This document shows positions 5,153-19,679 of a DNA stretch of 29,610 nt, piece after piece. Position 1 is the stretch's first letter; the number at the start of each line of letters is the position of its first letter. The stretch is taken from contig JBBDTI010000058.1 in the NCBI GenBank assembly GCA_040904565.1, positions 1-29,610 on the forward strand. Reading direction: 5' to 3'. This stretch comes from Rhodothermales bacterium. Lineage in GTDB: Bacteria; Bacteroidota; Rhodothermia; Rhodothermales; VXPQ01. The notes below the pieces were generated by a model. The model saw only the letters and a program-made list of their open reading frames with translations. It did not search any database and had not been told where the DNA came from. Position numbers and translations under genes: made by a program.

Positions 5153-6466
5153 CTAACCGGCATCGGGGAACGCCCAGGGGGCTCGATAGGCCGGGCGGAT
5201 GAGCTGATTGGCGGCACGATTGGCCGCAAACCGGCCCGTATCCTCGTTCCACACGACCCTTGATCGCGTGCGATACGCCACGTTGCCGAGGTGCGCCAGA
5301 AAGGCCGCCGCCCTTCCGTCTTCGACCGTGCATGTCGGTTCTCGGCGCTCGCGGACGGCCTCGATGAAATCGATGGCGTGCGCTTCGTGGTTGCTCCCCA
5401 CGCCCTCGCTGAACGGGACGGATTCCACCAGCGGCGCGCCTTCGCGCTCCTCCGCGATGACCTCCCATCCCGCGCGGTTGACGACGAGTGTTCCGTTATT
5501 ACCGATAAAGGCGATGCCGTAATGCCGGCCATACAGTCCGCGGTCGAGTCCAGCGAGGTGCTCCCACGTGATCGTGTAGTCGCCCATATCGTAGAGCACG
5601 GAGAGCGTGTCGGGTGTTTCGATGGCGCGATCGTGATACGTGTAGATGCCGCCCGAGGCGCTGACCGAACGGGGCGCGGCGTCGATACCCATGGCCCAGA
5701 CCACGATATCGAGCAGATGCACGCCCCAGTCGGTCAGGAGTCCGCCCCCGAAGTCCCACTGGTGGCGCCAGTTGCTATGAAAGCGGCTCGGATTGAACGG
5801 CTGGTCGGGAGCGGGACCGAGCCACATATCGAAATCGACGTGCGCCGGCGGGGGCTGATTCGGTACCCGCGGCTGTCCCTTCCCGTAATCGAAGAATCCC
5901 CAGACCTTGATCTGGCGGATGTCTCCCAGCCGGCCCGACTGCACGAAGTCCACCGCCTCCCGCCAGTGCGCCCCGCTGCGCTGCTGCTGCCCGACCTGGA
6001 CGACCCGCCCGTGTCGACGCGCCGCTGCGACCATGGCATCGAGCTCTCCGATGGAGTTGGCCATCGGCTTTTCGACGTAGACGTCCTTGCCGGCCGAACA
6101 GGCATCCGTCATCTGCAGGCAATGCCAGTGGTCGGGCGTGCCGATGATGACCGCGTCGACGTCCGATCGATCCAGGATCCTCCGGTAGTCGCTGAATGTG
6201 GGAGGGCGCTTTCCCGTCTGATCTTCCACGTCCGCCGCGCGGCCGTCAAGCACGTCCGCGTCGACGTCGCACAGCCCGCCGCAGAGCACGTCCGGCTGCC
6301 TGAGATGATTCGTGAGATCACCGAAGCCCATACCGCGACAGCCGATGAGGGCGACCACGAGGGCTTCATTCGGAGAGGCGCTGGACGTCCGGATCCAGGG
6401 TGCGGCCGCAACCGCGGCCGCCGCCTGTCCGGAACGACGGAGAAAAGAGCGACGGGAAAGAGGCAT
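5153..6466 (-). CDS. Gfo/Idh/MocA family NAD(P)-dependent oxidoreductase, Tat-exported
   Basis: Tat motif SRRSFL after the ATG at 6466. Rossmann ALIGCRGMG, IGTPDHWH, DVYVEKP, QVGQQQRS, FDMWLGPAP and GGGLLTDWGVHLLD. Confidence 0.95.
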   Translation of the reverse strand: MPLSRRSFLRRSGQAAAAVAAAPWIRTSSASPNEALVVALIGCRGMGFGDLTNHLRQPDVLCGGLCDVDADVLDGRAADVEDQTGKRPPTFSDYRRILDRSDVDAVIIGTPDHWHCLQMTDACSAGKDVYVEKPMANSIGELDAMVAAARRHGRVVQVGQQQRSGAHWREAVDFVQSGRLGDIRQIKVWGFFDYGKGQPRVPNQPPPAHVDFDMWLGPAPDQPFNPSRFHSNWRHQWDFGGGLLTDWGVHLLDIVVWAMGIDAAPRSVSASGGIYTYHDRAIETPDTLSVLYDMGDYTITWEHLAGLDRGLYGRHYGIAFIGNNGTLVVNRAGWEVIAEEREGAPLVESVPFSEGVGSNHEAHAIDFIEAVRERREPTCTVEDGRAAAFLAHLGNVAYRTRSRVVWNEDTGRFAANRAANQLIRPAYRAPWAFPDAG

Positions 6467-6586
6467 GTGGAGCTCGCGGTTTGTGAGACATGCGGCCAAG
6501 ATAAGGATCGGACCCATCAATCGAGAACACGTGTCCGAGGCACGTCAGACTTGACGAATCCAGGCGTACAGCTGCATAAAAGGTGG

Positions 6587-6615
6587 TTGATGCCCCTTTC
6601 CGCCCGCGATATATT
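6587..6615 (+). promoter_or_regulatory. Sigma70-like promoter for the large oxidoreductase operon
   Basis: TTGATG-N17-TATATT, ending 33 nt upstream of the ATG at 6649. Confidence 0.55.
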
Positions 6616-6648
6616 ACCCGCAGCCTCGCCTTGATTACTCGGTCGTAT

Positions 6649-9426
6649 ATGCATCGATTTTTCGCTGCTGCCGTCCTGGCGTGCTTCATGAGCATTCCAG
6701 GCGTGCAAGCACAGCAAACCGCATCATCTCCTCCTCCCGGCTCTCCGTATGCGAGCTTCGTAGAGGACGACTTCCCCTTTATCACGACGGCACTCCGGGC
6801 GGGCGAGCTCTCGGATGTCACGCCGGACGATAACTGGAGCGTCCGCGGGATCGTCGTCCAGCTCGGTCACGATACGTATCTTTGTTTCGATCCGGATCTC
6901 TTGAGGATGGCCGTCGCCTGGCAGGGTGAGTTCGTCTCGCTGATGACGATGGCGCAGGTGTCCTATCATCAGCTCGATAAGGGTAACGCGAACCCCCGCG
7001 TTCTGGGCGAACCTCTGGCCGCGACGGGCATGTACGCCGGCTGGATGGCCGATCCTCGCTTCGAGGACCCTCGCCCACCGGGCGACTACCCGGCGGATCC
7101 GGGTAGAGGCCCTCTGCCCGCCTCAATGGGAGCCTACGAGGGGCTGTACGTGCACGGCAACGACGTGGTCTTTTCCTACCGGGTAGGCCGGGCGCATGTC
7201 GACGAGCAGCCCGGCCTGATTCGAGGAGATGTGCAGTCGCTCGTCACGCGAACGTTCCGTATGTCGCGTTCCGACGAGCCGCTGAATCTCGTCACCGCCG
7301 ATGTCGACGGCGCCTCCGTACTCGTGGAATCCCCCGATGAAGTCGTTATCGCCCACGGAGATGGGAACGTGACCGCCGTTTTCTTAGAGGATGCTGCCGG
7401 ACGCCCGGCAGGGTCCAGCGCGATCCGATCGGAATCATCCGGCGGGGGCCTCTTCGTACGGTCGGATCGCTACGTCCTGCTTCGCGTGCCGGCGGCGGAC
7501 GGCGAGCGCCGGTTTCGTGTAGCGATGTGGTCGGGGCCGCGAGACGCCCTCGAGGCGGCGCGCGCCCTCAACGAAACCTCCGTACGTATGGTGGAGGATG
7601 TTCGCGAAGGCGGCCCCGGGCGTTGGCCGGAAGTCGTCGCGACGGGCGTCGAGGTCGCACCCGACACCAACGCGTTCGTCTACGATCACATCGCGTTACC
7701 CGACCCAAATCCCTGGCGGCGCAACGTGCGTCCGGCCGACCTGGCCTTCCTCTCCGACGGGCGTGCGGCCGTGGTGACCTTCGACGGCGACGTATGGATG
7801 GCGCGCGGACTCGCGTCGGAGTCGCCGGTCTGGCGTCGGTTTGCATCCGGACTCTACGAGCCGCTTGCCGTCGAAGTGGTCGCTGATGACGTCTACGTCT
7901 ACGGGCGGGAAGGGATCGTGCGGCTGCACGACGTCAACGGCGACGGCGAAGCGGATTTCTACGAGGCCTTCGCGCCGGGCATCATCCAATCGACCGCCTC
8001 CCGCGAATGGCCGTTCGACCTGGTCGCCCGGCCGGAGGGCGGCTTCTACGTCACGCAGGGAGGTGCCCTCAGCAGTCCAGCAGAACCCGACCGAACCCCT
8101 TTGCTGCCGGGATTCCTGGAAGGATCCCCGCACAATGGCGCGGTTCTCGAGGTTTCACCCGACGGCCGGGAGGTCGCGCGATACGCGACCGGTTTCAGAG
8201 CGCCGTATATCGGCGTACACCCCGAAAGCGGACGGCTCACGGCATCCGACCAGCAGGGGAATTTCGTACCCTCCACGCCGCTGTACGTGGTCGAGCGCGA
8301 TGGATACTACGGCGTGGCGGCGACGGCACATCGGCCCGATCCCCTGCCGCAGGCCCCGCCGCCGCTCACGTGGATTCCCCATCGCGTGGACCCGTCCGGC
8401 ACCAGTCAGGTCTGGATGACGTCCGACGGAAACGGCCCACTAGACGGGGGCCTGGTTCACCTGTCCTACGGCCGGTCCGGCCTCTTCCGCGTGTACGTCG
8501 ACAGCCTGGCGAATCCGGTACAGGGTGCCGTCACGCCGCTCCCCGACGACCGGCTCTCCCCGACGTTGAAGGCGGCACTGCATCCGGTAGACGGCAGGCT
8601 CTACGTCGCCGGCTTCCAGGTCTGGGGCTCCACGGCCGAAAAACTCGCGAGTCTCAGGCGCCTGCGATATACGGGCCGGGAGCACGGCCTGCCCGAGCAC
8701 GTTCGGGCAGGAAAGCAGGGCGTGCTGATTACGTTCGACAAGGCCGTCCAGTCTCCGCGTCCGGATGACGTGACCGTCACCAGATACAACTACCTGCGCA
8801 GCGAGCGGTACGGGTCGGGACACTACCGGCTCGATGGATCGGAAGGCGAAGAAACCCTGCCCGTGGCCGCCGCGCACGTATCGGACGACGGCAGGAACGT
8901 GCTGCTGGTGCTTCCCGACATGCGAGAGGTCATGCAAATGACGGTCGACTACCGCCTCGTCGATCTCGGCGGGACCCCTGTGGAAGGACAGGTCTATCTG
9001 ACGGTCAACGATGCGAGCGGGATTGATCTGTCGCCGTATGGTCTCGCCGGCGTCGACTGGGAAGCCGATCTCGTCGGCGTGTCGGACGAATTCGACAGCG
9101 AAGAAGGGGAGGAGATAGAGGCATCAGCCGTTCGCGGCCGGCACCTGTATCACGAGACCGGGTGCGTCGCCTGCCACAGCAGCGACGGCACGCAAGGCGG
9201 ACGGCTGGGGCCGACGTTCGACGGGCTCTACGGGTCGGAGCGAGAGCTGGCGTCGGGGGAGGTCGTTGGGGTGGACGACGGATACCTCAGGAGGGCCGTC
9301 CTGGACCCTGGAGACGAGGTGGCCGTGGGATTTGAAGGGGAAATGCCGTCTTTTCGCGGTATACTTGGGGATAGCGACATTGAATCCATCATTCTGTTCA
9401 TAAAGACCCTGACGGCGTCGGACTGA
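6649..9426 (+). CDS. Exported multidomain protein: DUF6797-like N-terminal domain, sugar-dehydrogenase-like beta-propeller and C-terminal c-type cytochrome
   Basis: Sec signal MHRFFAAAVLACFMSIPGVQA. FDPDLLRMAVAWQG is DUF6797-like. Propeller motifs WRRFASGLYEPLAV, DVNGDGEADFYE, ATGFRAP and DQQGNFVP. Heme motif CVACH (9163-9177) with GPTFDGLYG and distal Met in GEMPSF. Confidence 0.85.
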   Translation: MHRFFAAAVLACFMSIPGVQAQQTASSPPPGSPYASFVEDDFPFITTALRAGELSDVTPDDNWSVRGIVVQLGHDTYLCFDPDLLRMAVAWQGEFVSLMTMAQVSYHQLDKGNANPRVLGEPLAATGMYAGWMADPRFEDPRPPGDYPADPGRGPLPASMGAYEGLYVHGNDVVFSYRVGRAHVDEQPGLIRGDVQSLVTRTFRMSRSDEPLNLVTADVDGASVLVESPDEVVIAHGDGNVTAVFLEDAAGRPAGSSAIRSESSGGGLFVRSDRYVLLRVPAADGERRFRVAMWSGPRDALEAARALNETSVRMVEDVREGGPGRWPEVVATGVEVAPDTNAFVYDHIALPDPNPWRRNVRPADLAFLSDGRAAVVTFDGDVWMARGLASESPVWRRFASGLYEPLAVEVVADDVYVYGREGIVRLHDVNGDGEADFYEAFAPGIIQSTASREWPFDLVARPEGGFYVTQGGALSSPAEPDRTPLLPGFLEGSPHNGAVLEVSPDGREVARYATGFRAPYIGVHPESGRLTASDQQGNFVPSTPLYVVERDGYYGVAATAHRPDPLPQAPPPLTWIPHRVDPSGTSQVWMTSDGNGPLDGGLVHLSYGRSGLFRVYVDSLANPVQGAVTPLPDDRLSPTLKAALHPVDGRLYVAGFQVWGSTAEKLASLRRLRYTGREHGLPEHVRAGKQGVLITFDKAVQSPRPDDVTVTRYNYLRSERYGSGHYRLDGSEGEETLPVAAAHVSDDGRNVLLVLPDMREVMQMTVDYRLVDLGGTPVEGQVYLTVNDASGIDLSPYGLAGVDWEADLVGVSDEFDSEEGEEIEASAVRGRHLYHETGCVACHSSDGTQGGRLGPTFDGLYGSERELASGEVVGVDDGYLRRAVLDPGDEVAVGFEGEMPSFRGILGDSDIESIILFIKTLTASD

Positions 9427-9429
9427 GGC

Positions 9430-10230
9430 ATGAAACGAATGAACAGGCGCGAAGCACTGACGCGAGTAGGCTATTTGATGGGAGGCGTGCTGGCCGCGCC
9501 AACCGTCGCGGGCGTGCTCGGCGGATGTCGAACCGGAACGGATGCGGCCGGAGGATGGGCCGCGCTCTCCACCGACCAGGCGGGGCTCGTTGCCGCCGTG
9601 ACGAATACGATCGTGCCGGAAACCGATACGCCCGGTGCCGGAGATGCCGGCGTGCCGGGCTTCATCGATCGCATGCTGGCCGAATGGTATCCCGAAAGGC
9701 TGCGAGAACGGTTCCTCACGGGGCTGGACGCGCTCGAGCGAGAAGCCCTGGAAGCGACCGGGTCTTCCTTCGTGGATCTGTCCAACCAGCAGCAGCGCGA
9801 CCTGCTTGTCGGCGCGGCGCCGGACCTGTTCGGAAATGCGAACAGACTGTCCGGCGACGGAGCATCCGAACCGGCGGAGGGCGGTTCCGGTGAGACGGCG
9901 GACGGCGATGCGACGGAGATGCCGGAGACCGTGCGCGGCAGCACGCTCTCCGAAGACCTCAAGCTCAGGGTGACCTCGAGCATCCAGGGTGCCGCGCGCC
10001 GCGTCGCCGCCAGGCGGCCGGACGGCGGACCCGTCGTCCGTGCCGACGTCGCGCACGAGGGTGATCTAACCGGTGATCCGAGCTTTTTCCACATGCTTAA
10101 GGAGCTGACGCTCGTGGGATACTACACGTCCGAAGCCGGCGCGACACAGGAGCTGCGATTCGTCCAGGTACCGGGGCGGTGGGAGGCCTGTATTCCGTTT
10201 TCCGACGTGGGGCGGACGTGGGCGATCTGA
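9430..10230 (+). CDS. Gluconate 2-dehydrogenase subunit 3 family protein (Tat escort/small subunit of a GMC dehydrogenase)
   Basis: Tat motif NRREAL and lipobox-like LGGC. IVPETDTPGAGDAGVPGFID and FFHMLKELTLVGYYTSEAGA are characteristic of the family. It lies directly upstream of a GMC flavoprotein. Confidence 0.92.
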   Translation: MKRMNRREALTRVGYLMGGVLAAPTVAGVLGGCRTGTDAAGGWAALSTDQAGLVAAVTNTIVPETDTPGAGDAGVPGFIDRMLAEWYPERLRERFLTGLDALEREALEATGSSFVDLSNQQQRDLLVGAAPDLFGNANRLSGDGASEPAEGGSGETADGDATEMPETVRGSTLSEDLKLRVTSSIQGAARRVAARRPDGGPVVRADVAHEGDLTGDPSFFHMLKELTLVGYYTSEAGATQELRFVQVPGRWEACIPFSDVGRTWAI

Positions 10231-10340
10231 CGTGGCAGCGGATGGGTCCGGCATCGACGTTCGTGATACGCCGGCCGGTCCGTGCCGGAACGTCCAGCCG
10301 GCCAATCATAGCGACCTCTTGATTCGAAGGGAATGACATC

Positions 10341-12044
10341 GTGAACGTACAGACGAGACAGGAATACGACGCTATCGTCGTTGGTTCAGGCGTTGCCGGG
10401 GGCTGGGCCGCCAAAGAGCTGACCGAGAAGGGGCTCAATACGCTGCTGCTGGAACGCGGCCGGATGGTCGAGCACCAGGCGGACTACGTCACGGAGAATA
10501 AGGCGCCCTGGGAGCTTTATTTCCGGGGACGCGGTGACCGCGAGGAGTTCGAGCGCGACTACCCCGTCCAGCGCAAGGGGGGCGGTTTTGGAGAGGCCAC
10601 ATCCCATTTCTACGTGAACGACCGCGAAAATCCGTATACCTATCCGGAAGACAATCCCTTCATGTGGATTCGCGGGCATCAGGTCGGCGGCCGCTCCCTG
10701 ATCTGGGGACGTCAGTGCTACCGCTGGAGCCGGCTCGACTTCGAGGCGAACGCGCGGGACGGATTTGGGGTGGACTGGCCGATCCGGTATGAGAACGTGG
10801 CACCGTGGTACGACTACGTCGAGCCGTTCGTCGGCATCAGTGGGCAGGCGGAAGGGTTGCCCCAACTGCCCGATGGACGTTTTCAGCCGCCGATGGAGAT
10901 GAACTGCGGCGAGCGCCTGTTTAAGGAGCGCATGGAAGGCGCTTTCCCCGGTCGCCGCATGACGGTGGGACGCGTGGCCAACCTGACCCAGGGAATAAAC
11001 GGCCGGTCGGCGTGCCAGTATCGAAATCAGTGTTCGAGGGGGTGCTCCTACGGCGCCTATTTCAGCTCGCAGAGTGCCACGCTCCCCGCGGCCTTCGCTA
11101 CCGGGAATCTGACGCTGCAGCCGAACAGCATCGTGCACAGCGTACTCTACGACAACCGGAACGACCGGGCTACGGGCGTGCGTGTCATCGACGCGGAAAC
11201 GATGGAAGAGCGGGAATATTACGGGCGCATCGTGTTTCTGTGCGCCTCCGCTCTGGGATCCACCCGAATCATGCTGAACTCGACCTCGCCACGGTTTCCG
11301 AACGGCATCGCGAATTCCAGCGGGGCGCTTGGCCACTATCTTATGGATCACTGCTTCCAGGCCGGTGCGTCGGGCGAACTTCCGGGGAATAAGAACGAGT
11401 ATTTCTACGGCCGCCGTCCGAACGGCATCTACATCCCCCGCTTTCGCAATTTGGGTGATCGTGCGACGGAGCACCCCGATTTTCTGCGCGGCTACGGGTA
11501 TCAGGGCTCTGCCAGCAGGGCGGGATGGGGCCGCGGCGCCGGAGTTCCCGGTGTGGGATCGGGGTTGAAAGAGACGCTGCGAGAGCCGGGCCCGTGGAGC
11601 ATGTGGATCGGCGGATGGGGAGAATGCCTGCCGCGTGAAGAGAATTACGTCGAGCTGGATACGAACGTGACGGACGCCTGGGGAATGCCCGTGCTGCGGA
11701 TCCACTGCAAATGGAGTGACAACGAGGACAGGATGCGGGAGGACATGGCGCTCTCGGCGGCGGAGATGCTCGAGGCGGTCGGCGCGCGCAACATCCAGCC
11801 CTTCATCGAGGAATCGCCGCCCGGACTCTGCATCCACGAGATGGGAACGGCGCGCATGGGGCGCGATCCGGACACGTCGGTGTTGAACGCGCACAACCAG
11901 GCGCACGACGTCAGCAACCTGTTCGTGACCGACGGGGCGTGCATGACGTCGTCGGCGTGCCAGAATCCATCGATCACGTATATGGCCCTGACGGCCCGTG
12001 CCTGCGACTACGCCGTCCGTGAGATGCAGCGCGGAAATCTATAG
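10341..12044 (+). CDS. GMC family FAD-dependent oxidoreductase (glycoside 3-dehydrogenase catalytic-subunit-like)
   Basis: FAD motif YDAIVVGSGVAGG, VGGRSLIWGRQCYR, Cys cluster CQYRNQCSRGC (Fe-S-type), LGHYLMDH, catalytic IHEMGTARMG and QNPSITYMA. GTG start, no signal peptide. Confidence 0.95.
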   Translation: MNVQTRQEYDAIVVGSGVAGGWAAKELTEKGLNTLLLERGRMVEHQADYVTENKAPWELYFRGRGDREEFERDYPVQRKGGGFGEATSHFYVNDRENPYTYPEDNPFMWIRGHQVGGRSLIWGRQCYRWSRLDFEANARDGFGVDWPIRYENVAPWYDYVEPFVGISGQAEGLPQLPDGRFQPPMEMNCGERLFKERMEGAFPGRRMTVGRVANLTQGINGRSACQYRNQCSRGCSYGAYFSSQSATLPAAFATGNLTLQPNSIVHSVLYDNRNDRATGVRVIDAETMEEREYYGRIVFLCASALGSTRIMLNSTSPRFPNGIANSSGALGHYLMDHCFQAGASGELPGNKNEYFYGRRPNGIYIPRFRNLGDRATEHPDFLRGYGYQGSASRAGWGRGAGVPGVGSGLKETLREPGPWSMWIGGWGECLPREENYVELDTNVTDAWGMPVLRIHCKWSDNEDRMREDMALSAAEMLEAVGARNIQPFIEESPPGLCIHEMGTARMGRDPDTSVLNAHNQAHDVSNLFVTDGACMTSSACQNPSITYMALTARACDYAVREMQRGNL

Positions 12045-12051
12045 CCTCTCT

Positions 12052-12068
12052 GACGGCGGATCGCCGTC
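12052..12068 (+). terminator. Hairpin just after the GMC stop codon (possible terminator or mRNA stabiliser)
   Basis: Perfect 7-bp stem GACGGCG-gat-CGCCGTC. No U-tract. Confidence 0.35.
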
Positions 12069-12349
12069 CGACAGCATGTCCGCATCTGCAGAAGTCCTCC
12101 GCCGGCCGAGCGGCAGCCGTCGCGCTACCAAAAATCACCGACCTTGAATCCACACGCCGACTTCCCCGTTGAGTTACGTCGGTCCGGAGCATTCGGCGGG
12201 CACTTCGTGAAACGGTGACGCATGCGTTGCCGGGCGGCGTAGAGGTCGATTGGAACGGGTGGGTCGACGATACCTGCGTGAATGATCGTGGTCAACGCCG
12301 CGGGACGTTTTTTTCTGATGAGTATCAACGAAAACGAGATAGATTCGGC

Positions 12350-14350
12350 ATGAGAAGTTTGATCGTGATGTTGTTCCTGATTCCCGCCACGGCAGCGGCG
12401 CAGGGAACAGATACGTTGGAAGTCGTGCTTCCTGAATTGACGGTGGACGCCGTGCGCGAGACGGAGAGTACGGCCTCAGCGCCGTTCGCGCTGGGAATAG
12501 ACGTTCGGAGTCCGGAGGAGCTCGATTTCGAGCCGGCCCTCGCGCTCGAACGGGTGCTGCGTTCGCTGCCGGGCATCTGGATCAACGACCGTGGCCATTT
12601 CGCCGTAGGGGAGCGCATCTCGGTCCGCGGAACCGGTGCGCGCGCGGCGTTCGGCGTACGCGGGATTCAGGTACTGCTGGACGGGATTCCGCTTACGATG
12701 CCGGACGGGCAGGCCGCGCTCGACGTCGTCGAGTCGTCGCTCGTCCGGCGAACGGAGCTGCTGCGCAGCCCGGCGTCGCTGTTCTGGGGGAACGGTTCGG
12801 GGGGCGTGCTCTTCCTTTCCACAGCCGTAAGGCCCGCGCAGCCGAACGTTCGGGCCCGCCTGCTGGGTGGCTCGTTCGGACAGCGTCAGGTACTGCTCGA
12901 AGGGGCCGTGCCCATTGGGGCGCACGACGTGCGCGTCTACGCGTCGAATCTCCGTCAGGAGGGGTACCGCGCGTATTCCGAGGGTACGCAGCGACGCGTC
13001 GGTGCGATGGGGCGCTTTCGAATTGGAGACGCCGCGCGGCTGCGGACGATGGCGGCGCTCGCCACGCAGGATACCGAGAGCCCGAGCTCGCTGACGCGAG
13101 AGCAGATGGCGGACGATCCGACGCAGGCCCGGCAGGCTTTCGTTGACAATAGGGCCGGAAAGCAGAGCCTTCACGCGCAGGCCGGCGCCACGCTCGATCG
13201 TGAGTCCGGGTTCGGAACGGCGAGCCTCACGGCCTACGGCGTGCGGCGCCTCGTCGAGAATCCGCTCCCGTTCGGGTTTATCGATCTGGATCGGACGGCG
13301 GGCGGCGTGCGGACGGCACTGCGCGGCGAAGAGGGACGTATCCAGTGGGGCGTCGGCGCCGACGGCGCCGTTCAGCACGACATCAACAAGAACTTCGACA
13401 TCGATTTCGGTGAGCCGGGCGACGAGGTGGAGCTCGATCAAACGGAGGACGTGCTCTCGGCGGGCGCGTTCGTCTACGGCGGGTACGAGCTCGCCCCGTC
13501 GCTGAATGCGACGGCGGGCATGCGCTTCAGCCGGGTCCGGTTCGAGATGGACGATGACCTGCTCGCGAACGGGGATCAGTCCGGCGGTCGGACGTTTTCC
13601 GCCTGGAGTCCGACGGTCGGACTCTCCTACCGGCAACGCGGCGTGCTGCTATTCGCCAACTACGGAACGGCGTTCGAGACGCCGACGACGACGGAGCTCG
13701 TGAATCGGCCGGACATGACGGGCGGATTCAACCCGGAGATCGACGCCAAGATTTCGCGGGGCGTAGAGGTGGGAGCGCGTGGCGCCGTTGGCTCTTCGCT
13801 GCTGGTCGACGTGGCGGTCTACACGATGAACGTAAAGGGGCGTCTCGGATCGTTCGAGAACGAGCTCGGCCGCCAGTATTTCCGAAATGTCGGGGAGAAC
13901 ACGCACCGCGGACTCGAAGCGATGCTTTCCTGGTATCCGGCCGCGTCGTGGCAGATCGACGCTTCGTACACGGGAAGCCGGTTTGAGTTCGACGAAGACG
14001 AGCTCTCCGGCAATCTGATCCCCGGTATTCCGGAGCATCGCCTCTTCGGCGCCGTCCGGACGAACCGATCGGGCCTGTGGGCTCGCGTGGAAGGTGAGGT
14101 CGTGAGCGAGTATTTTGTAAACGATGCGAACACGGACGTGAATGACGGCTATGCCGTTTTCGACCTTTCGCTGGGCCACCGCGGCATCGCCTTCGGATCC
14201 GTGCAGGTAGCACCGTTCGCTACCCTTAAAAATGCACTTGACAAGCAGTATGCCGGATCGGTCGTGATCAATGCGTTCGGTGGACGCTACTATGAACCTG
14301 CGCCCGGCCGGGCCATTCTGGCCGGAGTTCAACTTAACTTCTTACCGTGA
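12350..14350 (+). CDS. TonB-dependent receptor, YncD/PqqU-like (candidate PQQ importer)
   Basis: Signal peptide MRSLIVMLFLIPATAAA. Plug motif GVRGIQVLLDGIPLTMPDGQ, FETPTTTEL and the C-terminal YAGSVVINAFGGRYYEPAPGR closely resemble E. coli YncD/PqqU as I recall it. The TBDT call is secure; the substrate is inferred. Confidence 0.9.
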   Translation: MRSLIVMLFLIPATAAAQGTDTLEVVLPELTVDAVRETESTASAPFALGIDVRSPEELDFEPALALERVLRSLPGIWINDRGHFAVGERISVRGTGARAAFGVRGIQVLLDGIPLTMPDGQAALDVVESSLVRRTELLRSPASLFWGNGSGGVLFLSTAVRPAQPNVRARLLGGSFGQRQVLLEGAVPIGAHDVRVYASNLRQEGYRAYSEGTQRRVGAMGRFRIGDAARLRTMAALATQDTESPSSLTREQMADDPTQARQAFVDNRAGKQSLHAQAGATLDRESGFGTASLTAYGVRRLVENPLPFGFIDLDRTAGGVRTALRGEEGRIQWGVGADGAVQHDINKNFDIDFGEPGDEVELDQTEDVLSAGAFVYGGYELAPSLNATAGMRFSRVRFEMDDDLLANGDQSGGRTFSAWSPTVGLSYRQRGVLLFANYGTAFETPTTTELVNRPDMTGGFNPEIDAKISRGVEVGARGAVGSSLLVDVAVYTMNVKGRLGSFENELGRQYFRNVGENTHRGLEAMLSWYPAASWQIDASYTGSRFEFDEDELSGNLIPGIPEHRLFGAVRTNRSGLWARVEGEVVSEYFVNDANTDVNDGYAVFDLSLGHRGIAFGSVQVAPFATLKNALDKQYAGSVVINAFGGRYYEPAPGRAILAGVQLNFLP

Positions 14351-14352
14351 CT

Positions 14353-15120
14353 ATGAAACAGCTCATCCTACTTTTCGCCCTCATGCTCTTCGCCGCACCG
14401 TCATCGTTCGCCCAGGAGGGCCGCGACCCGGCTAACTGGGAGATCCATGACCGAGAGCGGCCGCAGCCGAGGGTCGTCATGCCGCCGACACCCGGCACGC
14501 AGGATAAAGCGGGCCGCCCGCCGTCCGACGCCATCGTCCTTTTCGGAGGTACGGGACTATCCGACTGGGAGACGTCGGACGGCGACCTGGCGCCGTGGGT
14601 ATCCACCACGGAGTATTTTCAGGTACGCCCGGGGACGGGTGGCATTCAGACTAAAGAGGGTTTCGGGGACGTACAGCTGCACGTCGAGTGGACGGCGCCG
14701 AAGCCGCCCGTAGGGGAGGATCAGGACCGTGGAAACAGCGGCGTATTCCTGATGGGCCGCTATGAGGTACAGGTGTTGGATTCGTATACGAGCGAGACGT
14801 ACCCGGACGGACAGGCATCCGCCGTTTATGGCCAGTATCCGCCGCTCGTTAACGCCATGCGCGCACCGGGAGAGTGGAACACGTACGACATCGTGTTCAC
14901 GCGACCGCGGTTCGACGAGCAGGGCGAGCTGGCTTCCCCCGCTTACGTCACGGTGTTTCATAACGGCGTCCTGGTGCAGAACCACGAAGAGCTGACGGGG
15001 CCGTCGGGTCACTACGCGCGGCCGGACTACGAGGCGCACGCGGATCGGCTGCCGATCTCGCTGCAGGATCACGATCACGAGGTGCGTTTCCGCAACATCT
15101 GGGTTCGCGACCTCGAGTAA
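14353..15120 (+). CDS. DUF1080 (3-keto-disaccharide hydrolase / family 16 glycoside hydrolase-like) periplasmic protein
   Basis: Signal peptide, then PPSDAIVLFGG, FGDVQLHVEW, GNSGVFL, YEVQVLDS, PGEWNTYDIVF, HNGVLVQ and LQDHDHEVRFRNIWVR. An alternative GTG start at 14347 overlaps the receptor's stop codon. Confidence 0.93.
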   Translation: MKQLILLFALMLFAAPSSFAQEGRDPANWEIHDRERPQPRVVMPPTPGTQDKAGRPPSDAIVLFGGTGLSDWETSDGDLAPWVSTTEYFQVRPGTGGIQTKEGFGDVQLHVEWTAPKPPVGEDQDRGNSGVFLMGRYEVQVLDSYTSETYPDGQASAVYGQYPPLVNAMRAPGEWNTYDIVFTRPRFDEQGELASPAYVTVFHNGVLVQNHEELTGPSGHYARPDYEAHADRLPISLQDHDHEVRFRNIWVRDLE

Positions 15121-15192
15121 GCAACGCCGGCAAGCGAGAACGGGCGTGTCCGGCCCGATTCTTCTCCGTCACGCGATAGGCTGTCTGTAAGT

Positions 15193-17670
15193 ATGGTGCG
15201 GTTCATGCGATCGGTAGCGGTTCGTTCAGCGCTCGCGGTGCTGACGGCGGCGATCGTCGCGTCGTGTACCTCCACGCCGTGGCCTCCCGGCGTTCAGGAC
15301 GTTCCCGCCGAGGCCCCCGTGCTCGCGCCGGATCGCGCGCTGGAGACCTTCTACCTCCCGCCAGGCTTCGGCATCGAGATCGTGGCGGCCGAGCCGATGG
15401 TGGAGGATCCCGTTGCGATCGACTTCGACGCGGACGGACGCATGTGGGTCGTCGAGATGCGGGGGTATATGCCGAACGTCGACGGGACGGGCGAGCGGAC
15501 GCCGAACGGACGTATCACGGTTCTGGAGGACGTGGACGGCGACGGGCGGATGGACGAACGGGCCGTCTTTCTGGACAGCCTGGTTCTGCCGCGTGCCGTC
15601 AAGGCGCTCGATCGCGGCATCCTCGTCGCCGAGCCTCCCTATCTATGGCTTGCGCGCGATACGACGGGCGATCTCCGGGCAGACGTAAAGGAGGTCGTCC
15701 GCGACGATTACGGCCGACGCGCGTCGAACCCGGAGCGGAATCCGAACGGACTCGTGTGGGGCCTCGACAATACGCTGCTCAGCGTATGGCACGACCAGGA
15801 TCTGCGCGTCGACGCGAAAGGGAACTGGTCCGCCATTCCCACGCTGCACACGGCGCAGTGGGGCGTATCCGTCGACGACTTTGGCTATGCCTTCAAAAAC
15901 TCGAACGCCGATCCTCTACGGATCGACCTGATCCCGGCGACGTACTACGCGCGGAATCCGAACCTGGAGCGCCGGCAGGGGGCCTACGTCGACCTCGTCG
16001 ACGACGACAGCGTATGGCCCGTTCGTCCGACCCCCGGCATCAATCGAGGCTATCAGGATCACATGCTGCGCGAAGATAGCACGCTCGCCATCTTCACGGC
16101 GGCGGGGTCTCCCGTCGTGTATCGTGGAGACCGGCTCCCTCCCGAGCTGGTCAATGACGTCTTTGTGTCCGAGCCGGCGGGCAACCTGGTGCGGAGGTTC
16201 GCCGTGGAACGCGGTGCCGACGGCTCGATGACGGCGGCGAACCCGTATCAGGACGTTCAGGGAGAGTTTCTCGCGTCCACCGACGAACGCTTTCGACCGG
16301 TAAACCTGTACTCCGCTCCGGATGGGACACTGTACGTGGTGGATTTCTATCGGGGGATCGTTCAGCACCGCGATTATTTGACCGAATACCTGGAAGACTA
16401 CATCCTGAAGAAAGGTCTGGATCGGCCTCTCGGGATGGGCAGGATCTATCGGATCACGCATAAGGACTACGAACGAGATGAGCGCCCGCGCCTATCCGAT
16501 CTCAGCGCCGCCGAGCTCGCCGAAGTGCTCAGGCATCCCAACGGGTGGTGGCGGGACGCCGCGCAGCGGCTCATCGTAGAGCGAGGCGACACGTCGGCCG
16601 TCAACGTATTACGGGAGATGGTGACGTCGGCGGGCGACGAAAGCGTGCGCCTGCATGCGCTGTGGACGCTAGATGGATTGAATGTGGATGTGCCCCATGC
16701 GGCCTCCGAGGATGCCTCGCCGTACGTACGCTCGGCATGGGTCCGACATCGGGAGGGTACGCTCGATCTACTGGACGTGCTGGATGAGGTGGATCCGATC
16801 GTACGCCGGCAGGTTGCCGCATCGATCGGCACGCTGCCGGGTGCGCCGGCGCTGGAGTCCGTCGCCGCACTGCTCGTCCGACAGGGCACCGATTCTATCG
16901 CCGTAGACGCGGCCCTCAGCGGCGTGTACGGTCGCGAAGCCGATCTCCTGCTGCATCTCCTGGCCTATCGCGATGTCGTGGCTCTGCGCGATGCCCTCGC
17001 CATGACGACGGCGGCGGCCCTTAACGGTGGTGAACGGGATGTCGTTTTCGCAGCGTCCGGTGAAGAAGACCGGCCGGCGTGGCAGCGCCTCGCCATCCTG
17101 CACGGTATCCTCGCCTTCGCTCCCGAGCCGCCCGAAGACACGACGAGGTGGAGCGAGTTCGAGCCCCACGCGCTGGACGACGTCCCGGCTGGACTGATCA
17201 CCGCGGCGGAGTCGGACGATGAGGACGTACGACGCGCGGCCGGCCAGGCCCTGGATCGGTTCACGTGGCCGGGAAAGCCCCGGCCTGATCGTCCGGATGT
17301 GCGACCGCTGTCCGCGCGGGAGCAGGAGCTTTTCGACCGGGGGCGTGATCTGTATCTTACGACCTGTTCGGTCTGTCACGGCACCGACGGACAAGGACGT
17401 GAGGCCGAGGGGCCCGCCCTCGCCGGGGCGCGATGGGTGAATGGGGACGAAGATCCGCTTATTCGGATTCTTCTGCATGGCCTCGAGGGAAATGGCTTGA
17501 TGCCCCCGCAGCGGCGCCTCTCAGACGGCGAGCTGGCGGCCGTCCTGACGTACATCCGGCGTGCCTGGGGTCATCGAGGCAGTGTCGTTACGGAGGACGA
17601 GGTCGAGGAAGTGCGAGGCCGAACCGCGTCGCGGGACCGGCCGTGGACCGAGCAGGAGCTGGGAGAGTGA
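15193..17670 (+). CDS. Lipoprotein with PVC-type putative membrane-bound dehydrogenase beta-propeller (DUF7133-like), HEAT-like repeats and C-terminal cytochrome c
   Basis: Lipobox VASC. Motifs LPPGFGIEIVAAEPMVEDPVAIDFDADGRMWVVEMRGYM, DVDGDGRMD and EFLASTDERFRPVNLYSAPDGTLYVVDFYRG. HEAT-like segments HPNGWWRDAAQRL and RLHALWTL. Heme motif CSVCH (17365-17379) with Met in LMPP. Confidence 0.9.
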   Translation: MVRFMRSVAVRSALAVLTAAIVASCTSTPWPPGVQDVPAEAPVLAPDRALETFYLPPGFGIEIVAAEPMVEDPVAIDFDADGRMWVVEMRGYMPNVDGTGERTPNGRITVLEDVDGDGRMDERAVFLDSLVLPRAVKALDRGILVAEPPYLWLARDTTGDLRADVKEVVRDDYGRRASNPERNPNGLVWGLDNTLLSVWHDQDLRVDAKGNWSAIPTLHTAQWGVSVDDFGYAFKNSNADPLRIDLIPATYYARNPNLERRQGAYVDLVDDDSVWPVRPTPGINRGYQDHMLREDSTLAIFTAAGSPVVYRGDRLPPELVNDVFVSEPAGNLVRRFAVERGADGSMTAANPYQDVQGEFLASTDERFRPVNLYSAPDGTLYVVDFYRGIVQHRDYLTEYLEDYILKKGLDRPLGMGRIYRITHKDYERDERPRLSDLSAAELAEVLRHPNGWWRDAAQRLIVERGDTSAVNVLREMVTSAGDESVRLHALWTLDGLNVDVPHAASEDASPYVRSAWVRHREGTLDLLDVLDEVDPIVRRQVAASIGTLPGAPALESVAALLVRQGTDSIAVDAALSGVYGREADLLLHLLAYRDVVALRDALAMTTAAALNGGERDVVFAASGEEDRPAWQRLAILHGILAFAPEPPEDTTRWSEFEPHALDDVPAGLITAAESDDEDVRRAAGQALDRFTWPGKPRPDRPDVRPLSAREQELFDRGRDLYLTTCSVCHGTDGQGREAEGPALAGARWVNGDEDPLIRILLHGLEGNGLMPPQRRLSDGELAAVLTYIRRAWGHRGSVVTEDEVEEVRGRTASRDRPWTEQELGE

Positions 17671-17676
17671 ACTTCT

Positions 17677-17760
17677 GCGACACCGAGACGCCGACACTGA
17701 CATTACGAAATCGAGACCACGACAGCGAGACCACGAAATCGAGACCACGAAATCGAGACC
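17677..17760. repeat. 14-bp tandem repeat, 6 units (3 identical)
   Basis: gcgacaccgagacg / ccgacactgacatt / acgaaatcgagacc / acgacagcgagacc / acgaaatcgagacc / acgaaatcgagacc. Confidence 0.9.
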
Positions 17761-17788
17761 GATTCATAGAACTACAGGCATCGAAATA

Positions 17789-18817
17789 ATGAAGACCGTG
17801 ACCTTCGGAGAGATCATGCTCCGGCTATCCCCGCCGGGATACCGCCGTTTCATTCAGGCGCAGTCGTTCGACGTCACGTACGGCGGTGGCGAGGCCAACG
17901 TGGCCGTCGCGCTCGCCAATTACGGGTTCGACAGTCATTTCCTTTCCAAGATACCTCGCCACGAGATCGGCCAGGCCTGCGTCAACCATCTCCGGCGTTT
18001 CGGCGTGTCCGACCGCTTCATCGTGCGCGGCGGCGACCGGTTGGGGTTGTACTACCTGGAGACGGGGGCGAGCCAGCGCGGATCCAAGGTGATCTACGAT
18101 CGGGCGGAGAGTGCCGTAACGACGATGACGCCTGAAGAGGCAGACCTTGACGCGGTGTTCGATGGGGCCGCGTGGTTTCACTGGACGGGGATTACCCCGG
18201 CGCTGGGTGAGCAGCCGCGCCGGACGCTCGTCGCAGCCTGCAAGGCAGCGAAGGCGGCCGGCGCCCGCGTGAGCTGCGACCTGAACTTCCGTGCGAAATT
18301 GTGGACCGAGAAGGAAGCACAATCCGTGATGCAGCCCCTGATGAAGTACGTGGACGTCTGCATCGCCAATGAAGAGGATGCCGAGAAAAGTCTCGGTTTC
18401 ACGGCCGGCTCGTCGGACGTCGAGTCGGCGGCGCTCGACGAGGCGGCCTATTTCCAGCTGGCCCGGCAGCTCAAGACGGAATACGGATTCGACGCCGTTG
18501 CCATTACGCTGCGGGAAAGCTTCTCGGCATCCGTCAACGGATGGAGCGCCGTGCTGCACGACGAGCGGGAATGCGCCGAGCCGCGGCGTTCCTCGCGCTA
18601 CGAGATTCAGCTGGTCGACCGGGTCGGCGGTGGAGATTCGTTTGCATCCGGTCTCATCGCGGGCCTCCTCACCAAAGACGATACCCGCGAAGCGCTCGAG
18701 TTCGCCGTGGCGGCCTCCTGCCTCAAGCAGACGATTCCCGGCGATTTCAACCTTGTTTCGACGGCGGAGGTGGAGAAGCTGGCAACGGGTTCGGGATCTG
18801 GACGTGTCGAGCGATAA
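17789..18817 (+). CDS. kdgK: PfkB family sugar kinase, 2-dehydro-3-deoxygluconokinase-like
   Basis: MKTVTFGEIMLRLSP, YGGGEANVA, GASQRGSKVIYDRA, SCDLNFRAKLW, IANEEDA, DRVGGGDSFASG and KQTIPGDFN. The likely true start is ATG 17789. Confidence 0.9.
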   Translation: MKTVTFGEIMLRLSPPGYRRFIQAQSFDVTYGGGEANVAVALANYGFDSHFLSKIPRHEIGQACVNHLRRFGVSDRFIVRGGDRLGLYYLETGASQRGSKVIYDRAESAVTTMTPEEADLDAVFDGAAWFHWTGITPALGEQPRRTLVAACKAAKAAGARVSCDLNFRAKLWTEKEAQSVMQPLMKYVDVCIANEEDAEKSLGFTAGSSDVESAALDEAAYFQLARQLKTEYGFDAVAITLRESFSASVNGWSAVLHDERECAEPRRSSRYEIQLVDRVGGGDSFASGLIAGLLTKDDTREALEFAVAASCLKQTIPGDFNLVSTAEVEKLATGSGSGRVER

Positions 18818-18884: not shown

Positions 18885-19679
18885 TCAGATGTTTTCAAGC
18901 CCCAGTCGCTGGGCCAGCTCGTCGCGTCGCCCGCGGCTGACCTTCAGCCGCTGCCCGTTCTTGAGGGTTATCGCGTAATCTCCGCCCGGAGCGTGGTGCA
19001 GCGACTCGATGAGATTCAGACGAACGATGGTCGAACGGTGTATCCGGAAAAAATCGGCGGGATTGAGGCGCTCTTCGAGCGTCTGCATCTGTTCGCGGAT
19101 GAGAAACGTATTTTCATCCGTGTGCAGCTCCGCATACGGACCGCTCGCTGAGATGTAATCGATCTGTTCGACGGGTACGACGCGCACCTTGCCCCGCATA
19201 TCCACGGCAACCCGCTCCAGATACGGCTGCTGAGCTTTCTCTACCTCGTCGTCATCTCGAAATAAAGCCAGCAGGCGATCCTTCACCGCGTCGACCTCTT
19301 TGAGACGCAGCGTCTTTTTAGCGCGTTCGTACGCCTGCTCGAAGCGTTCGTCGTCGAACGGCTTCAAAAGGTAGTCGACCGCAGCCACGTCGAACGCACG
19401 CAACGCATAGCGGTCGTACGCCGTCACGAAGATCGTCAACGGCATGTCTTCCGCGCCGACCTCCTCGACGACCTCCAATCCCGTCTTACGAGGCATCTGC
19501 ACGTCGAGAAAGACGAGATCTATCTCCTCGTCCCGAAGCACGGCGACCGCATCGGCGCCGTTATCGATCTGATCCACGATGACGGCTTCGGGATACGGAG
19601 ACAGCAGATCCTCCAGCCGTTGGCGGGCCAGCGGCTCGTCGTCGACGATGAGGATGCGAAGGTCGTCGTTCTTAGGCAT
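18885..19679 (-). CDS. LytTR family two-component response regulator
   Basis: Receiver domain ILIVDDEPLAR...FLDVQMP...FVTAYD...DYLLKPF and LytTR domain FFRIHRSTIV...KVSR. Its start overlaps the kinase stop codon. Confidence 0.96.
   Translation of the reverse strand: MPKNDDLRILIVDDEPLARQRLEDLLSPYPEAVIVDQIDNGADAVAVLRDEEIDLVFLDVQMPRKTGLEVVEEVGAEDMPLTIFVTAYDRYALRAFDVAAVDYLLKPFDDERFEQAYERAKKTLRLKEVDAVKDRLLALFRDDDEVEKAQQPYLERVAVDMRGKVRVVPVEQIDYISASGPYAELHTDENTFLIREQMQTLEERLNPADFFRIHRSTIVRLNLIESLHHAPGGDYAITLKNGQRLKVSRGRRDELAQRLGLENI

Follow-up and report, generated by a model that had tools for sequence, protein, structure and literature searches.

Flavoprotein-cytochrome c dehydrogenases have a published architecture that combines an iron-sulfur flavoprotein, a Tat hitch-hiker subunit and a heme subunit, and those of the LacABC type are encoded near DUF1080 genes in Caulobacter and Bacteroidetes. 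In Munder et al. (2025), three residues, Arg365 among them, define PqqU, and the substitution R365E impaired the E. coli protein; the survey in the same paper detected pqq synthesis in none of the PqqU-bearing Bacteroidota and lists Rhodothermia among the holders of PqqU. About 22,000 six-blade PQQ propellers, some of them fused to heme domains, have been described in carbohydrate loci (2026 preprint). [quoted passage not shown] Its source cosmid complemented a Lac- Sinorhizobium meliloti strain, and the purified protein, expressed in E. coli BL21(DE3)pLysS, reportedly liberated glucose from lactose; the Km given, 1.8 mM, is near the LacZ value that the authors quote. Independent confirmation of this hydrolytic activity was not found in the literature searched.

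The stretch of DNA analyzed here (the window, 29,610 nucleotides) comes from a sediment Rhodothermales bacterium, and comparison with relatives shows the locus that it carries to be pieced together from known modules, with two uncharacterized propeller-cytochrome proteins besides (Table 1). All eight genes listed in the first-pass annotation were confirmed with open reading frames (ORFs), Pfam and NCBIfam, at or near the positions given there; in four ORFs, the true start falls within the longest ORF. From the first gene to the last, the successive intergenic gaps are 182, 3, 110, 305, -4, 72 and 118 nt, the small-subunit gene starting 3 nt past the stop codon of the DUF6797 gene and the DUF1080 gene having a 4-nt overlap with the stop codon of the receptor gene. 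Export signals, apart from the match to the TIGR01409 Tat model, were read by eye at the N-termini. A terminator scan gave 4 sites, fewer than in shuffled sequences (mean 9.0). With a probability somewhat better than even, the locus is a mosaic, particular to this lineage, of genes for periplasmic sugar oxidation, built in three layers, rather than one dedicated conserved system.

Table 1. Genes of the locus, with positions in the window.
Product	Positions	Strand	Remarks
Gfo/Idh/MocA oxidoreductase, Tat signal RRSFLRR	5153-6466	-	Divergent from the + strand genes; Pfam N- and C-terminal GFO_IDH_MocA domains
DUF6797 + six-blade GSDH-fold propeller (predicted) + β-sandwich + monoheme cytochrome c	6649-9426	+	Pfam DUF6797 4.9e-25
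Gluconate_2-dh3 (subunit-3-type small subunit), N-terminus MKRMNRREAL...LGGC	9430-10230	+	PF13618 4.3e-32
GMC flavoprotein catalytic subunit, no signal sequence	10341-12044	+	PDB homology, Cys motif
TonB-dependent receptor, PqqU family (predicted)	12350-14350	+	Best NCBIfam model is PqqU
DUF1080/3keto-disac_hyd, signal peptide	14347-15120	+	PF06439 2e-39
DUF7133 (TIGR02604) propeller + HEAT + monoheme cytochrome c, lipoprotein-type	15193-17670	+	DUF7133 4.2e-98
PfkB-family KDG-kinase-like (KdgK), cytoplasmic	17789-18817	+	PfkB 3.2e-35

The resemblance of the receptor to PqqU, proposed in the first-pass annotation, extends over its full length: the YncD/PqqU structures are matched at 3.6e-63 (6v81, residues 33-661) and 4.6e-63 (9c4o), and the next-best receptor matches reach only 1.4e-11, over the plug alone. 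The score against the NCBIfam PqqU equivalog NF041535, a model tuned to close relatives of E. coli PqqU, is 269.1 bits, below the cut-off of 1200. PQQ-contact residues were tallied over 143 full-length representatives of the family, in which the aromatic position 99 is Phe in 139, R304 is present in 141, R365 in 141 and R536 in 116, and position 274 is Lys in 74 and Glu in 60, in agreement with the published PqqU signature and its K/E split. Four of the five contact positions are retained in the window receptor (F99, K274, R304, R536), Phe occupying the place of Tyr99 and Arg304 being present as the signature requires. The position of Arg365 is taken by Asn (codon AAC, 13385-13387), a replacement involving two nucleotide substitutions, present in contigs from three runs and, among the representatives and 11 relatives compared, found in the window receptor alone; Arg is conserved there in 141 of the 143 representatives and in 11 of 11 relatives. 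Of the resemblance to PqqU proposed earlier, the full-length homology and the four contact residues stand, and one of the three published signature residues is missing. Judged from sequence, the receptor is a member of the published PqqU family of PQQ importers; its Asn may weaken or alter binding.

This receptor is the sole PqqU-like gene in the genome. The absence of pqq genes, first noted for the window, holds for the whole genome (94.9% complete): pqqC gave no match and matches to pqqE and pqqB fell far under the cut-off, the pqqC search being without a positive control because its model matched in no control genome. The genome encodes one Asd-like six-blade PQQ-dehydrogenase homolog (GSDH; 2g8s, 2.3e-84) and seven eight-blade PQQ-dehydrogenase ORFs, five of which were scanned, each with TIGR03074 as its best match (322-471 bits). 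With eight homologs of canonical-type PQQ enzymes in the genome, a PQQ importer is already accounted for.

The GMC protein aligns over its full length with the large subunit of fructose dehydrogenase (1e-37) and with FAD-glucose dehydrogenase α (2e-33) in the PDB. Its C-x5-C-x3-C motif (11013-11045), the three Cys of which are invariant across 25 homologs, aligns with CCGNNNCMPIC of fructose dehydrogenase, and homologs 66-67% identical to it bear the JGI name 'glucoside 3-dehydrogenase (cytochrome c) catalytic subunit'. The twin-arginine motif and the lipobox-like LGGC of the small subunit were recognized by eye; TIGR01409 gave no match for this protein, and neither did a PDB sequence search. 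No multi-heme or triheme cytochrome subunit is encoded beside the pair, both flanking cytochrome proteins having a single CxxCH, and the genome encodes another GMC/subunit-3 pair, which likewise is without a cytochrome subunit gene of its own in the neighborhood. The GMC protein and the Tat small subunit are predicted to form an iron-sulfur flavoprotein of the fructose-/FAD-glucose-dehydrogenase type and, together with DUF1080, match by analogy the published LacABC/DUF1080 3-ketoglycoside route. The Gfo/Idh/MocA protein exceeds the TIGR01409 Tat cut-off (18.4 versus 16.7 bits), and its best NCBIfam model is the BT_2158 glycoside 3-dehydrogenase (163 bits over residues 22-291, below the cut-off of 750). 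The DUF1080 protein scores 136 bits against PF06439 (cut-off 26.8) and matches PDB 4qhz at 3.1e-59; KdgK scores 271.8 bits against the KDG/KDGal kinase model NF041332, under its cut-off of 440. As suggested earlier, the set of GMC, subunit 3, DUF1080 and Gfo proteins is consistent with published 3-keto-glycoside chemistry.

Both propellers are predicted to have the six-blade glucose-dehydrogenase (GSDH) fold, which in comparisons of the structural models is that of six-blade PQQ dehydrogenases, for DUF7133 by a small margin over other six-blade propellers. For the DUF6797 protein (heme motif CVACH at 9163-9177), the GSDH-type propeller lies at about residues 340-678. Compared via its predicted model (pLDDT 85.2), this propeller finds only six-blade PQQ dehydrogenases among its top 15 matches, and their Z scores (27.2-24.9) exceed those of lactonases and NHL domains by about 3-5 units, the best match being 3a9g (Z 27.2, rmsd 3.4, 298 residues aligned); a comparison with the GSDH profile in hhalign gave a probability of 74% (E 2.7e-5). 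Its cytochrome domain resembles 1w2l (39% identity). The position of the catalytic H144 of sGDH is Glu453, Glu being found in 30 of 30 homologs, that of R228 is R517, likewise invariant (30/30), and that of N229 is E, G or A in the homologs; K641 is invariant in the last-blade strand that bears R406/R408 in sGDH, by our own count of the blades, as hhalign mis-registers that blade. The DUF7133 protein (heme motif CSVCH at 17365-17379) passes the cut-offs of TIGR02604 (198.7 versus 122.2 bits) and PF23500 (329.6 versus 27 bits). Compared via its predicted model (pLDDT 88.5), its propeller matches 3a9g at Z 23.5, with DFPase and lactonases at about 20, and its cytochrome domain matches that of a Ralstonia nitrite reductase (1.3e-22). 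An R-x-R on its last-blade strand is invariant (hhalign probability 84%). In our own motif alignment, position 178, which would correspond to the catalytic His, is H in 22, S in 4, R in 3 and V in 1 of the homologs, with Arg in the window protein, and position 216, the putative equivalent of R228, has R in 13 of the 30 homologs, the window protein having Thr there. Pfam GSDH and TrAA12 have no match in either propeller protein at E<=0.01, and sequence searches with either propeller found no PQQ enzyme. The two propellers may use PQQ. The idea that imported PQQ arms both of them is not supported by the state of the sGDH catalytic His, which is replaced by an invariant Glu in one and falls at a variable position, Arg in the window protein, in the other.

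The genes of the locus have different distributions among relatives. The order receptor-DUF1080-KdgK and its 4-nt overlap recur in three genera, only within this family, DUF1080 following the receptor in all family-level relatives; these within-family comparisons are non-independent. Five complete relatives have CSD-receptor-DUF1080-KdgK without dehydrogenase genes. Locus L152 reads Gfo(-)-receptor-DUF1080-DUF7133cyt-KdgK-LytTR-HisK, with a Gfo ortholog (73% identical) directly divergent from the receptor and without the GMC block, and locus L057 agrees with the window from the 3' end of GMC onward. DUF6797-cytochrome c, subunit 3 and GMC form a 5.7-kb block present in the window and in one sister MAG, over two contigs; a 6288-base contig encodes a DUF6797 protein 66% identical and a partial GMC 89% identical to those of the window. 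Elsewhere in the phylum, none of 40 PqqU loci has a homolog of DUF7133-cytochrome c, DUF6797-cytochrome c, GMC or subunit 3 within about 9 kb. The receptor has near it none of five DUF6797-cytochrome c orthologs and one of six DUF7133-cytochrome c orthologs, that one in a genome of the same family; the DUF6797-cytochrome c orthologs of five other genomes do not adjoin GMC genes either. These counts largely bear out a gene order without conservation, which the first-pass annotation named as grounds for refuting its reading of one system. A local tie between PqqU and the DUF7133 propeller may exist, because the window, L057 and L152 all have the DUF7133-cytochrome c gene within the conserved receptor run.

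The domain content, homologies and motifs, the genome inventory and the gene order of relatives are observations; which substrates are used, where the electrons go, whether PQQ is transported and whether the genes are co-transcribed is inferred. In the resulting scheme, the first layer would be a family-level backbone, in which the Tat-exported Gfo/Idh/MocA gene diverges from the PqqU-type receptor, DUF1080, in some cases DUF7133-HEAT-cytochrome c, and KdgK. The receptor would import PQQ for the whole cell, which has the Asd-like and seven eight-blade homologs and no detected PQQ synthesis genes. The conserved receptor-DUF1080-KdgK order hints at a functional tie that a general cofactor importer leaves unexplained. 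The second layer would be the inserted 5.7-kb block of DUF6797-propeller-cytochrome c, small Tat subunit and GMC. The latter two would make up a dehydrogenase of the fructose-, FAD-glucose- or lactose-3-dehydrogenase type, an iron-sulfur flavoprotein exported by Tat hitch-hiking. Its periplasmic substrate would be a sugar or a glycoside, and the electrons would go to a c-type heme, in the simplest case that of the domain whose gene ends 3 nt before the small-subunit gene. Any 3-keto-glycosides would fall to DUF1080 and the Gfo enzyme. In the third layer, the two GSDH-fold propeller-cytochrome c fusions would act on sugars and deliver electrons to the respiratory chain via their own heme.

It appears unlikely, if less so than the other alternatives, that the receptor scavenges PQQ specifically for the DUF6797 and DUF7133 propellers, which would act as six-blade quinohemoprotein sugar dehydrogenases beside the flavoprotein route. 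Such a role would fit the uniformly PQQ-type structural matches of the DUF6797 propeller, its invariant R517 and K641, the R-x-R of DUF7133, the adjacency of receptor and DUF7133-cytochrome c in three loci and the heme-fused six-blade propellers of the 2026 preprint, but the His144 position is Glu throughout the DUF6797 homologs and variable in DUF7133, Pfam and sequence searches give no PQQ enzyme, the best DUF7133 match to such enzymes barely exceeds DFPase, and the 40 PqqU loci outside the family have no such genes nearby. In favor of such a role, PqqU-like receptors occur in 22 of 41 DUF7133 genomes of the phylum sample and in 30 of 359 without DUF7133, a comparison of our own lists that is confounded by kinship. 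A PqqU-like receptor and pqqC are both missing from 19 of the 41, which argues weakly against the propellers as the destination of imported PQQ, because 14 of these 19 still hold eight-blade PQQ-dehydrogenase homologs. The activity on lactose reported for a protein of the same architecture made in E. coli with no PQQ added points the same way. It is quite improbable that DUF6797-type proteins are unrecognized six-blade quinohemoproteins, with Glu for the catalytic His and PqqU-imported PQQ, one of which would double here as the missing cytochrome subunit of the GMC dehydrogenase, the three genes moving as one cassette, with DUF7133-HEAT-cytochrome c as a second such enzyme.

A hydrolytic role is also quite unlikely: DUF7133-HEAT-cytochrome c, and perhaps DUF6797, would be a β-propeller glycosidase that splits a glycoside in the periplasm and is one of three 'glycoside hydrolase' families outside CAZy, the others being DUF1080 and Gfo/Idh/MocA. 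The reported β-galactosidase Lac161_ORF7, overlooked when the propeller-cytochrome proteins were said to have no assigned substrate, argues for it, as do the TIGR02604 score of the window protein, a fused ThuA domain in 24 of 120 listed DUF6797 homologs and a planctomycete genome paper that groups TIGR02604, DUF1080 and PF01408 as putative glycoside hydrolase families. However, a covalent heme c domain, kept in 30 of 30 homologs, is of no evident use to a hydrolase, and the comparison of Lac161_ORF7 with the window protein is one of domain architecture. BL21 is lacZ+, so carry-over of the host enzyme is a concern for that protein, the Km of which is close to that of LacZ. The import of an anionic ligand other than PQQ, with chelated lanthanide and a derivative of a sugar acid processed by DUF1080 and KdgK as candidates, is very unlikely. 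The unique Asn, the overlap with DUF1080 and the family-level gene order would be in keeping with it, and a preprint reports lanthanide receptors mis-annotated as YncD/PqqU with 6V81 as top PDB match; those receptors are described as being without the PQQ residues, however, four of which the window receptor has, and the genome has no other PqqU-like gene to supply its PQQ enzymes. Arg365 is retained in each of the 11 relatives that share this gene order, and the conserved order therefore belongs to signature-complete PqqU genes.

Read as a mosaic, the locus can be compared part by part with described systems. Like E. coli PqqU (PDB 6V81, 9C4O), the receptor is homologous over its full length, has an aromatic residue at 99 and K274, R304 and R536, and is present as one copy in the genome of a PQQ non-producer with quinoproteins; it differs in Asn for Arg365, in an identity of only ~27% and in its score below the equivalog cut-off. 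DUF1080 and KdgK follow the receptor here and are absent from 39 of 40 other PqqU loci. The flavoprotein shares a Cys-rich iron-sulfur GMC protein and a Tat small subunit with fructose dehydrogenase (7W2J, Gluconobacter), FAD-glucose dehydrogenase (6A2U, Burkholderia) and Caulobacter LacABC, and the DUF1080 gene close by with the last of these, but there is no triheme membrane cytochrome, the nearby hemes being single CxxCH domains on large propeller proteins, and GMC is separated from DUF1080 by the gene of a receptor. Lac161_ORF7, with the same three-domain architecture as the DUF7133 protein, has a reported activity that is hydrolytic. The predicted fold of both propellers is that of sGDH (1C9U/1CQ1), Asd (2G8S), the Pyrobaculum enzyme (3A9G) and fungal AA12 (6JT5/6H7T), with which DUF6797 shares the R228-equivalent Arg and DUF7133 the last-blade R-x-R, and a heme domain is attached to them as it is to the pyranose dehydrogenase of fungi and to certain bacterial six-blade members. 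Unlike these enzymes, the two propellers lack the catalytic His and a Pfam GSDH/AA12 match, and they have additional DUF6797, β-sandwich or HEAT domains and heme c rather than heme b.

The window forms the opening 29.6 kb of a 110-kb contig, in a genome of 4.02 Mb that is 94.9% complete. The gene content given by the first-pass annotation was borne out by ORF listing, Pfam and NCBIfam.

Genes of the locus and its flanks
Feature	Position	Strand	Basis
M1 peptidase, cold-shock protein, LPG-synthase-C-like gene (upstream flank)			
Tat-signal Gfo/Idh/MocA	5153-6466	-	ORF/Pfam/NCBIfam
DUF6797-propeller-cytochrome c	6649-9426	+	ORF/Pfam/NCBIfam
Gluconate-2-dehydrogenase-subunit-3-type protein, RR motif and LGGC	9430-10230	+	
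GMC flavoprotein without signal	10341-12044	+	ORF/Pfam/NCBIfam
TonB-dependent receptor	12350-14350	+	
DUF1080	14347-15120	+	ORF/Pfam/NCBIfam
DUF7133-HEAT-cytochrome c	15193-17670	+	ORF/Pfam/NCBIfam
PfkB gene, KDG-kinase-like	17789-18817	+	ORF/Pfam/NCBIfam
LytTR response regulator and histidine kinase (downstream flank)	18885-21138	-	
Second Tat-type Gfo/Idh/MocA, twin-arginine N-terminus DRRRFLATGG (downstream flank)	21245-22612		
SDR, araA-like/FGGY/araD/SSF set (downstream flank)			
Eight-blade PQQ-dehydrogenase homolog, 1.4 kb past window end	G000:C58:31011-32927 (= L071:1401-3317)		TIGR03074, 471 bits

Each of the two cytochrome-bearing proteins has a single CxxCH motif. The LytTR/histidine kinase pair is common to the sister MAG contig (L057) and to a locus from a genome of the same family (L152). 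The eight-blade homolog past the window end comes after the araA-like/FGGY/araD/SSF set and is followed by a sulfatase and an enolase-superfamily gene. A promoter and terminator scan of the window gave no signal above shuffled sequence, terminator-like sites being fewer than in the shuffles; within this below-shuffle total, hairpins were seen at 12286-12303 (GMC-receptor gap) and 15141-15157 (3' of DUF1080). Rfam had no match anywhere in the window, so no riboswitch was recognized 5' of the receptor.

In a phmmer search, the receptor, the only PqqU-like gene of the genome, gave full-length matches to both PqqU/YncD structures (3.6e-63), and the remaining receptors match it in the plug only, at 1e-11 or weaker. 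In the available text of the paper defining PqqU (Munder et al., 2025), the signature consists of an aromatic residue at Y99 with R304 and R365, K274 (often Glu) and R536 being semi-conserved (E. coli numbering). E. coli PqqU was aligned with the genes of 10 relatives and with 143 proteins of full length (at least 600 aa), taken from the 150 best 50%-cluster representatives after the seven shorter ones had been left out. Phe occupies position 99 in 139 of the 143, R304 and R365 are each present in 141, position 274 is Lys in 74 and Glu in 60, and R536 is found in 116; judged by these columns, the aligned set is the published PqqU family. The window receptor retains F at 99, K274, R304 and R536 and has Asn at position 365, the sole Asn among the 143 representatives and 11 relatives (Arg in 11/11 of the latter). 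The receptor is thus PqqU-like, as first annotated, though it is a family member failing one defining residue. The Asn codon (AAC, 13385-13387) is a two-base change from CGC/CGG, and is the same in the covering contigs of three sediment runs, all belonging to a single study; one of these runs may be the source of the window. Contig pieces from run X4 and low-depth contigs from X1 matched short parts only and were set aside. Contigs from runs X2 and X3 break just 5' of this codon (ends at 13353/13314, restarts at 13371/13360), and these breaks, at about 13315-13370, may be due to variation among the strains of the population. The Arg365Asn receptor is a natural variant on which the published PqqU signature can be tested.

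The absence of pqq biosynthesis genes extends to the whole genome: pqqC had no match, with a model lacking a positive control, and pqqE and pqqB gave only generic radical-SAM and metallo-hydrolase matches, far under the cut-off. The genome carries a gene for a soluble dehydrogenase resembling Asd/YliI (2g8s, 2.3e-84), together with seven eight-blade ORFs; all five of those scanned had a PQQ glucose/quinate/shikimate dehydrogenase model as best match (322-471 bits), and cytochrome c is inserted in four of them. In each of six eight-blade ORFs that resemble PQQ dehydrogenases and are 748-866 aa long (G000:C11:12097-28394, C3:17563-20142, C51:3512-6109), four of them clustered on contig C11, a CxxCH is inserted in the region of residues 520-630. 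PQQ-dehydrogenase homologs together with no detectable pqq synthesis imply a general need for imported PQQ, which explains the receptor without its neighbours, and we lean towards a putative PQQ importer serving the whole cell.

The first-pass annotation instead read the locus as one candidate system, which may scavenge PQQ to arm two propeller-cytochromes beside an FAD-dependent 3-keto route. The gene order of the locus is shared by close kin only. Among 13 loci found with the receptor, L057 has the window order from the GMC 3' end through the histidine kinase; five complete Rhodothermales chromosomes have hyp-CSD-receptor-DUF1080-KdgK, without any of the dehydrogenase genes; and four distant loci have nothing else in common with the window. 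An additional genome of the family, at L152 (M1-CSD-LPGsynC-Gfo(-)-receptor-DUF1080-DUF7133cyt-KdgK-LytTR-HisK-SDR), has the window order minus the DUF6797cyt/subunit 3/GMC block. In the phylum, 52 of 400 sampled genomes have a PqqU-like receptor, and neighbourhoods of about ±9 kb were examined around 40 of these. None (0/40) held a homolog of DUF7133cyt, DUF6797cyt, GMC or subunit 3; DUF1080 and KdgK were present in one (apparently the same genome as locus L058), and a GSDH-like gene in two. Orthologs of DUF6797cyt occur in 5/400 genomes, always away from GMC, subunit 3, DUF1080 and the receptor, and those of DUF7133cyt in 6/150 genomes of the class, near the receptor in L152 only. Order kept solely in close kin resolves the locus into three layers: a family-level backbone, the DUF7133cyt gene (which two of the three genera have) and an inserted block of three genes, 5.7 kb long. 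As a 'system', the locus is a patchwork, assembled mostly from known parts. A second local pairing, in which DUF1080, DUF6797-like propeller and eight-blade quinohemoprotein-like genes adjoin, was seen at G000:C3:13665-20142.

The arming of the propeller-cytochromes by PQQ can also be weighed on their folds and residues. In confident structure models (pLDDT 88.5 for DUF7133cyt, 85.2 for DUF6797cyt), the 15 top VIA matches of the DUF6797 propeller were all six-blade PQQ dehydrogenases (Z 27.2-24.9), ahead of HHIP (24.2) and of lactonases and NHL domains (about 22); such dehydrogenases also came top for the DUF7133 propeller (Z 23.5-20.5), with DFPase next (about 20). Against PDB sequences, the DUF7133 domain profile found only DFPase (1e-3) and sGDH (0.27), and a search with the DUF6797 propeller by itself gave no relevant match; neither window propeller matched Pfam GSDH or TrAA12. 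Residues were compared by profile-profile alignments and column counts, the sGDH numbering (H144, R228/N229, K377, R406/R408) being carried over via the genome's Asd-like protein. Across the DUF6797 family, Glu is invariant at the H144 position (E453 in the window protein) and Arg at the R228 position (R517), and an invariant Lys (K641) lies at the R408 site, as placed by our own blade count. In the DUF7133 family, an R-x-R on the last-blade strand (R362 and R364 in the window protein) is invariant, and the H144 position, located by motif, is H/S/R/V (Arg in the window), beside an invariant Glu (E177). From these conserved charged residues, both pockets look polar and cation-rich, yet unlike those of known PQQ enzymes. 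The six-blade fold of PQQ dehydrogenases is upheld by the models, more clearly for DUF6797 than for DUF7133, but neither window copy has His at the H144 position (placed by motif in DUF7133), and PQQ-armed propeller-cytochromes seem unlikely; fold and fused heme point to dehydrogenases. Next to DUF6797 orthologs, the genes differed from one case to another (DUF6807, xylose-isomerase-like TIM barrel, enolase-type, SDR, symporter, PBP) and gave no functional lead. A fused ThuA domain (PF06283) occurs in 24 of the 120 DUF6797 homologs listed, and two large GSDH-domain proteins of the genome (C56:13645-16947 and C11:38095-41211) have an N-terminal stretch that is ThuA-like by eye.

Both families, DUF7133/TIGR02604 and DUF6797, are expanded in Planctomycetes, Verrucomicrobia, Bacteroidota and Gemmatimonadota, with more than 7,800 DUF7133-type matches listed and 463 DUF6797-type matches among the 8,000 candidates scored. 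PqqU-like receptor and pqqC are both missing from 19 of 41 DUF7133 genomes; 14 of these 19 hold eight-blade PQQ-dehydrogenase homologs, and five (G040, G220, G163, G223, G227) have none of the three. PQQ six-blade propellers number in the thousands in a 2026 preprint, where they were selected by an AA12 model and nine residues; some have heme domains. Our literature search found no paper using DUF7133, DUF6797 or 'PVC-type heme-binding'; TIGR02604 does occur, in two of the works listed, and in the available text of one paper a TIGR02604-HEAT-cytochrome c protein is reported to be a β-galactosidase, an assay that we view with caution. The locus owes its significance to these very abundant uncharacterised families and to a naturally occurring Arg365Asn variant. 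It is a compact test bed, combining the only putative importer of a PQQ auxotroph, two propeller-cytochromes and an iron-sulfur flavoprotein that lacks the cytochrome subunit usual for its kind. Settling the PQQ requirement of the propellers would aid the annotation of many proteins and reveal how periplasmic sugar oxidation is coupled to respiration in these bacteria.

The flavoprotein part of the locus is of a known kind, given the precedent of LacABC-type 3-dehydrogenases, whose genes lie close to those for DUF1080 in Caulobacter and Bacteroidetes according to the available text of a fitness-genetics paper, where DUF1080 is proposed to be a 3'-ketolactose hydrolase. The earlier assignment of GMC, subunit 3, DUF1080 and Gfo to 3-keto-glycoside breakdown fits this route as far as that text describes it; a literature search on glucoside 3-dehydrogenase and Tat yielded nothing useful. 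The fructose dehydrogenase (1e-37) and FAD-glucose dehydrogenase (2e-33) large subunits are matched by the GMC protein along its entire length, and its C225-x5-C231-x3-C235, invariant in 25 homologs, lines up with the Cys-rich stretch in fructose dehydrogenase. A second GMC (61% identity), followed by subunit 3, lies at G000:C34:38699-41318 beside RND efflux genes, with no cytochrome gene nearby. In the window, 3 nt separate the DUF6797 gene from the small-subunit gene downstream, and DUF6797cyt, subunit 3 and GMC travel as a block, which makes the DUF6797 heme domain the simplest candidate electron acceptor for the GMC pair; electrons would pass from GMC/small subunit to this heme. Complex prediction for GMC, small subunit and the DUF6797 cytochrome domain scored 0.00, which carries weight for neither side. 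Enzymes of the fructose/FAD-glucose dehydrogenase type comprise, in the available text of a structural paper, an iron-sulfur flavoprotein, a Tat hitch-hiker small subunit and a three-heme cytochrome; unlike these complexes, the window has the flavoprotein and small subunit without the three-heme cytochrome, and the GMC pair has its closest hemes in the propeller proteins, each of which has one single-heme domain.
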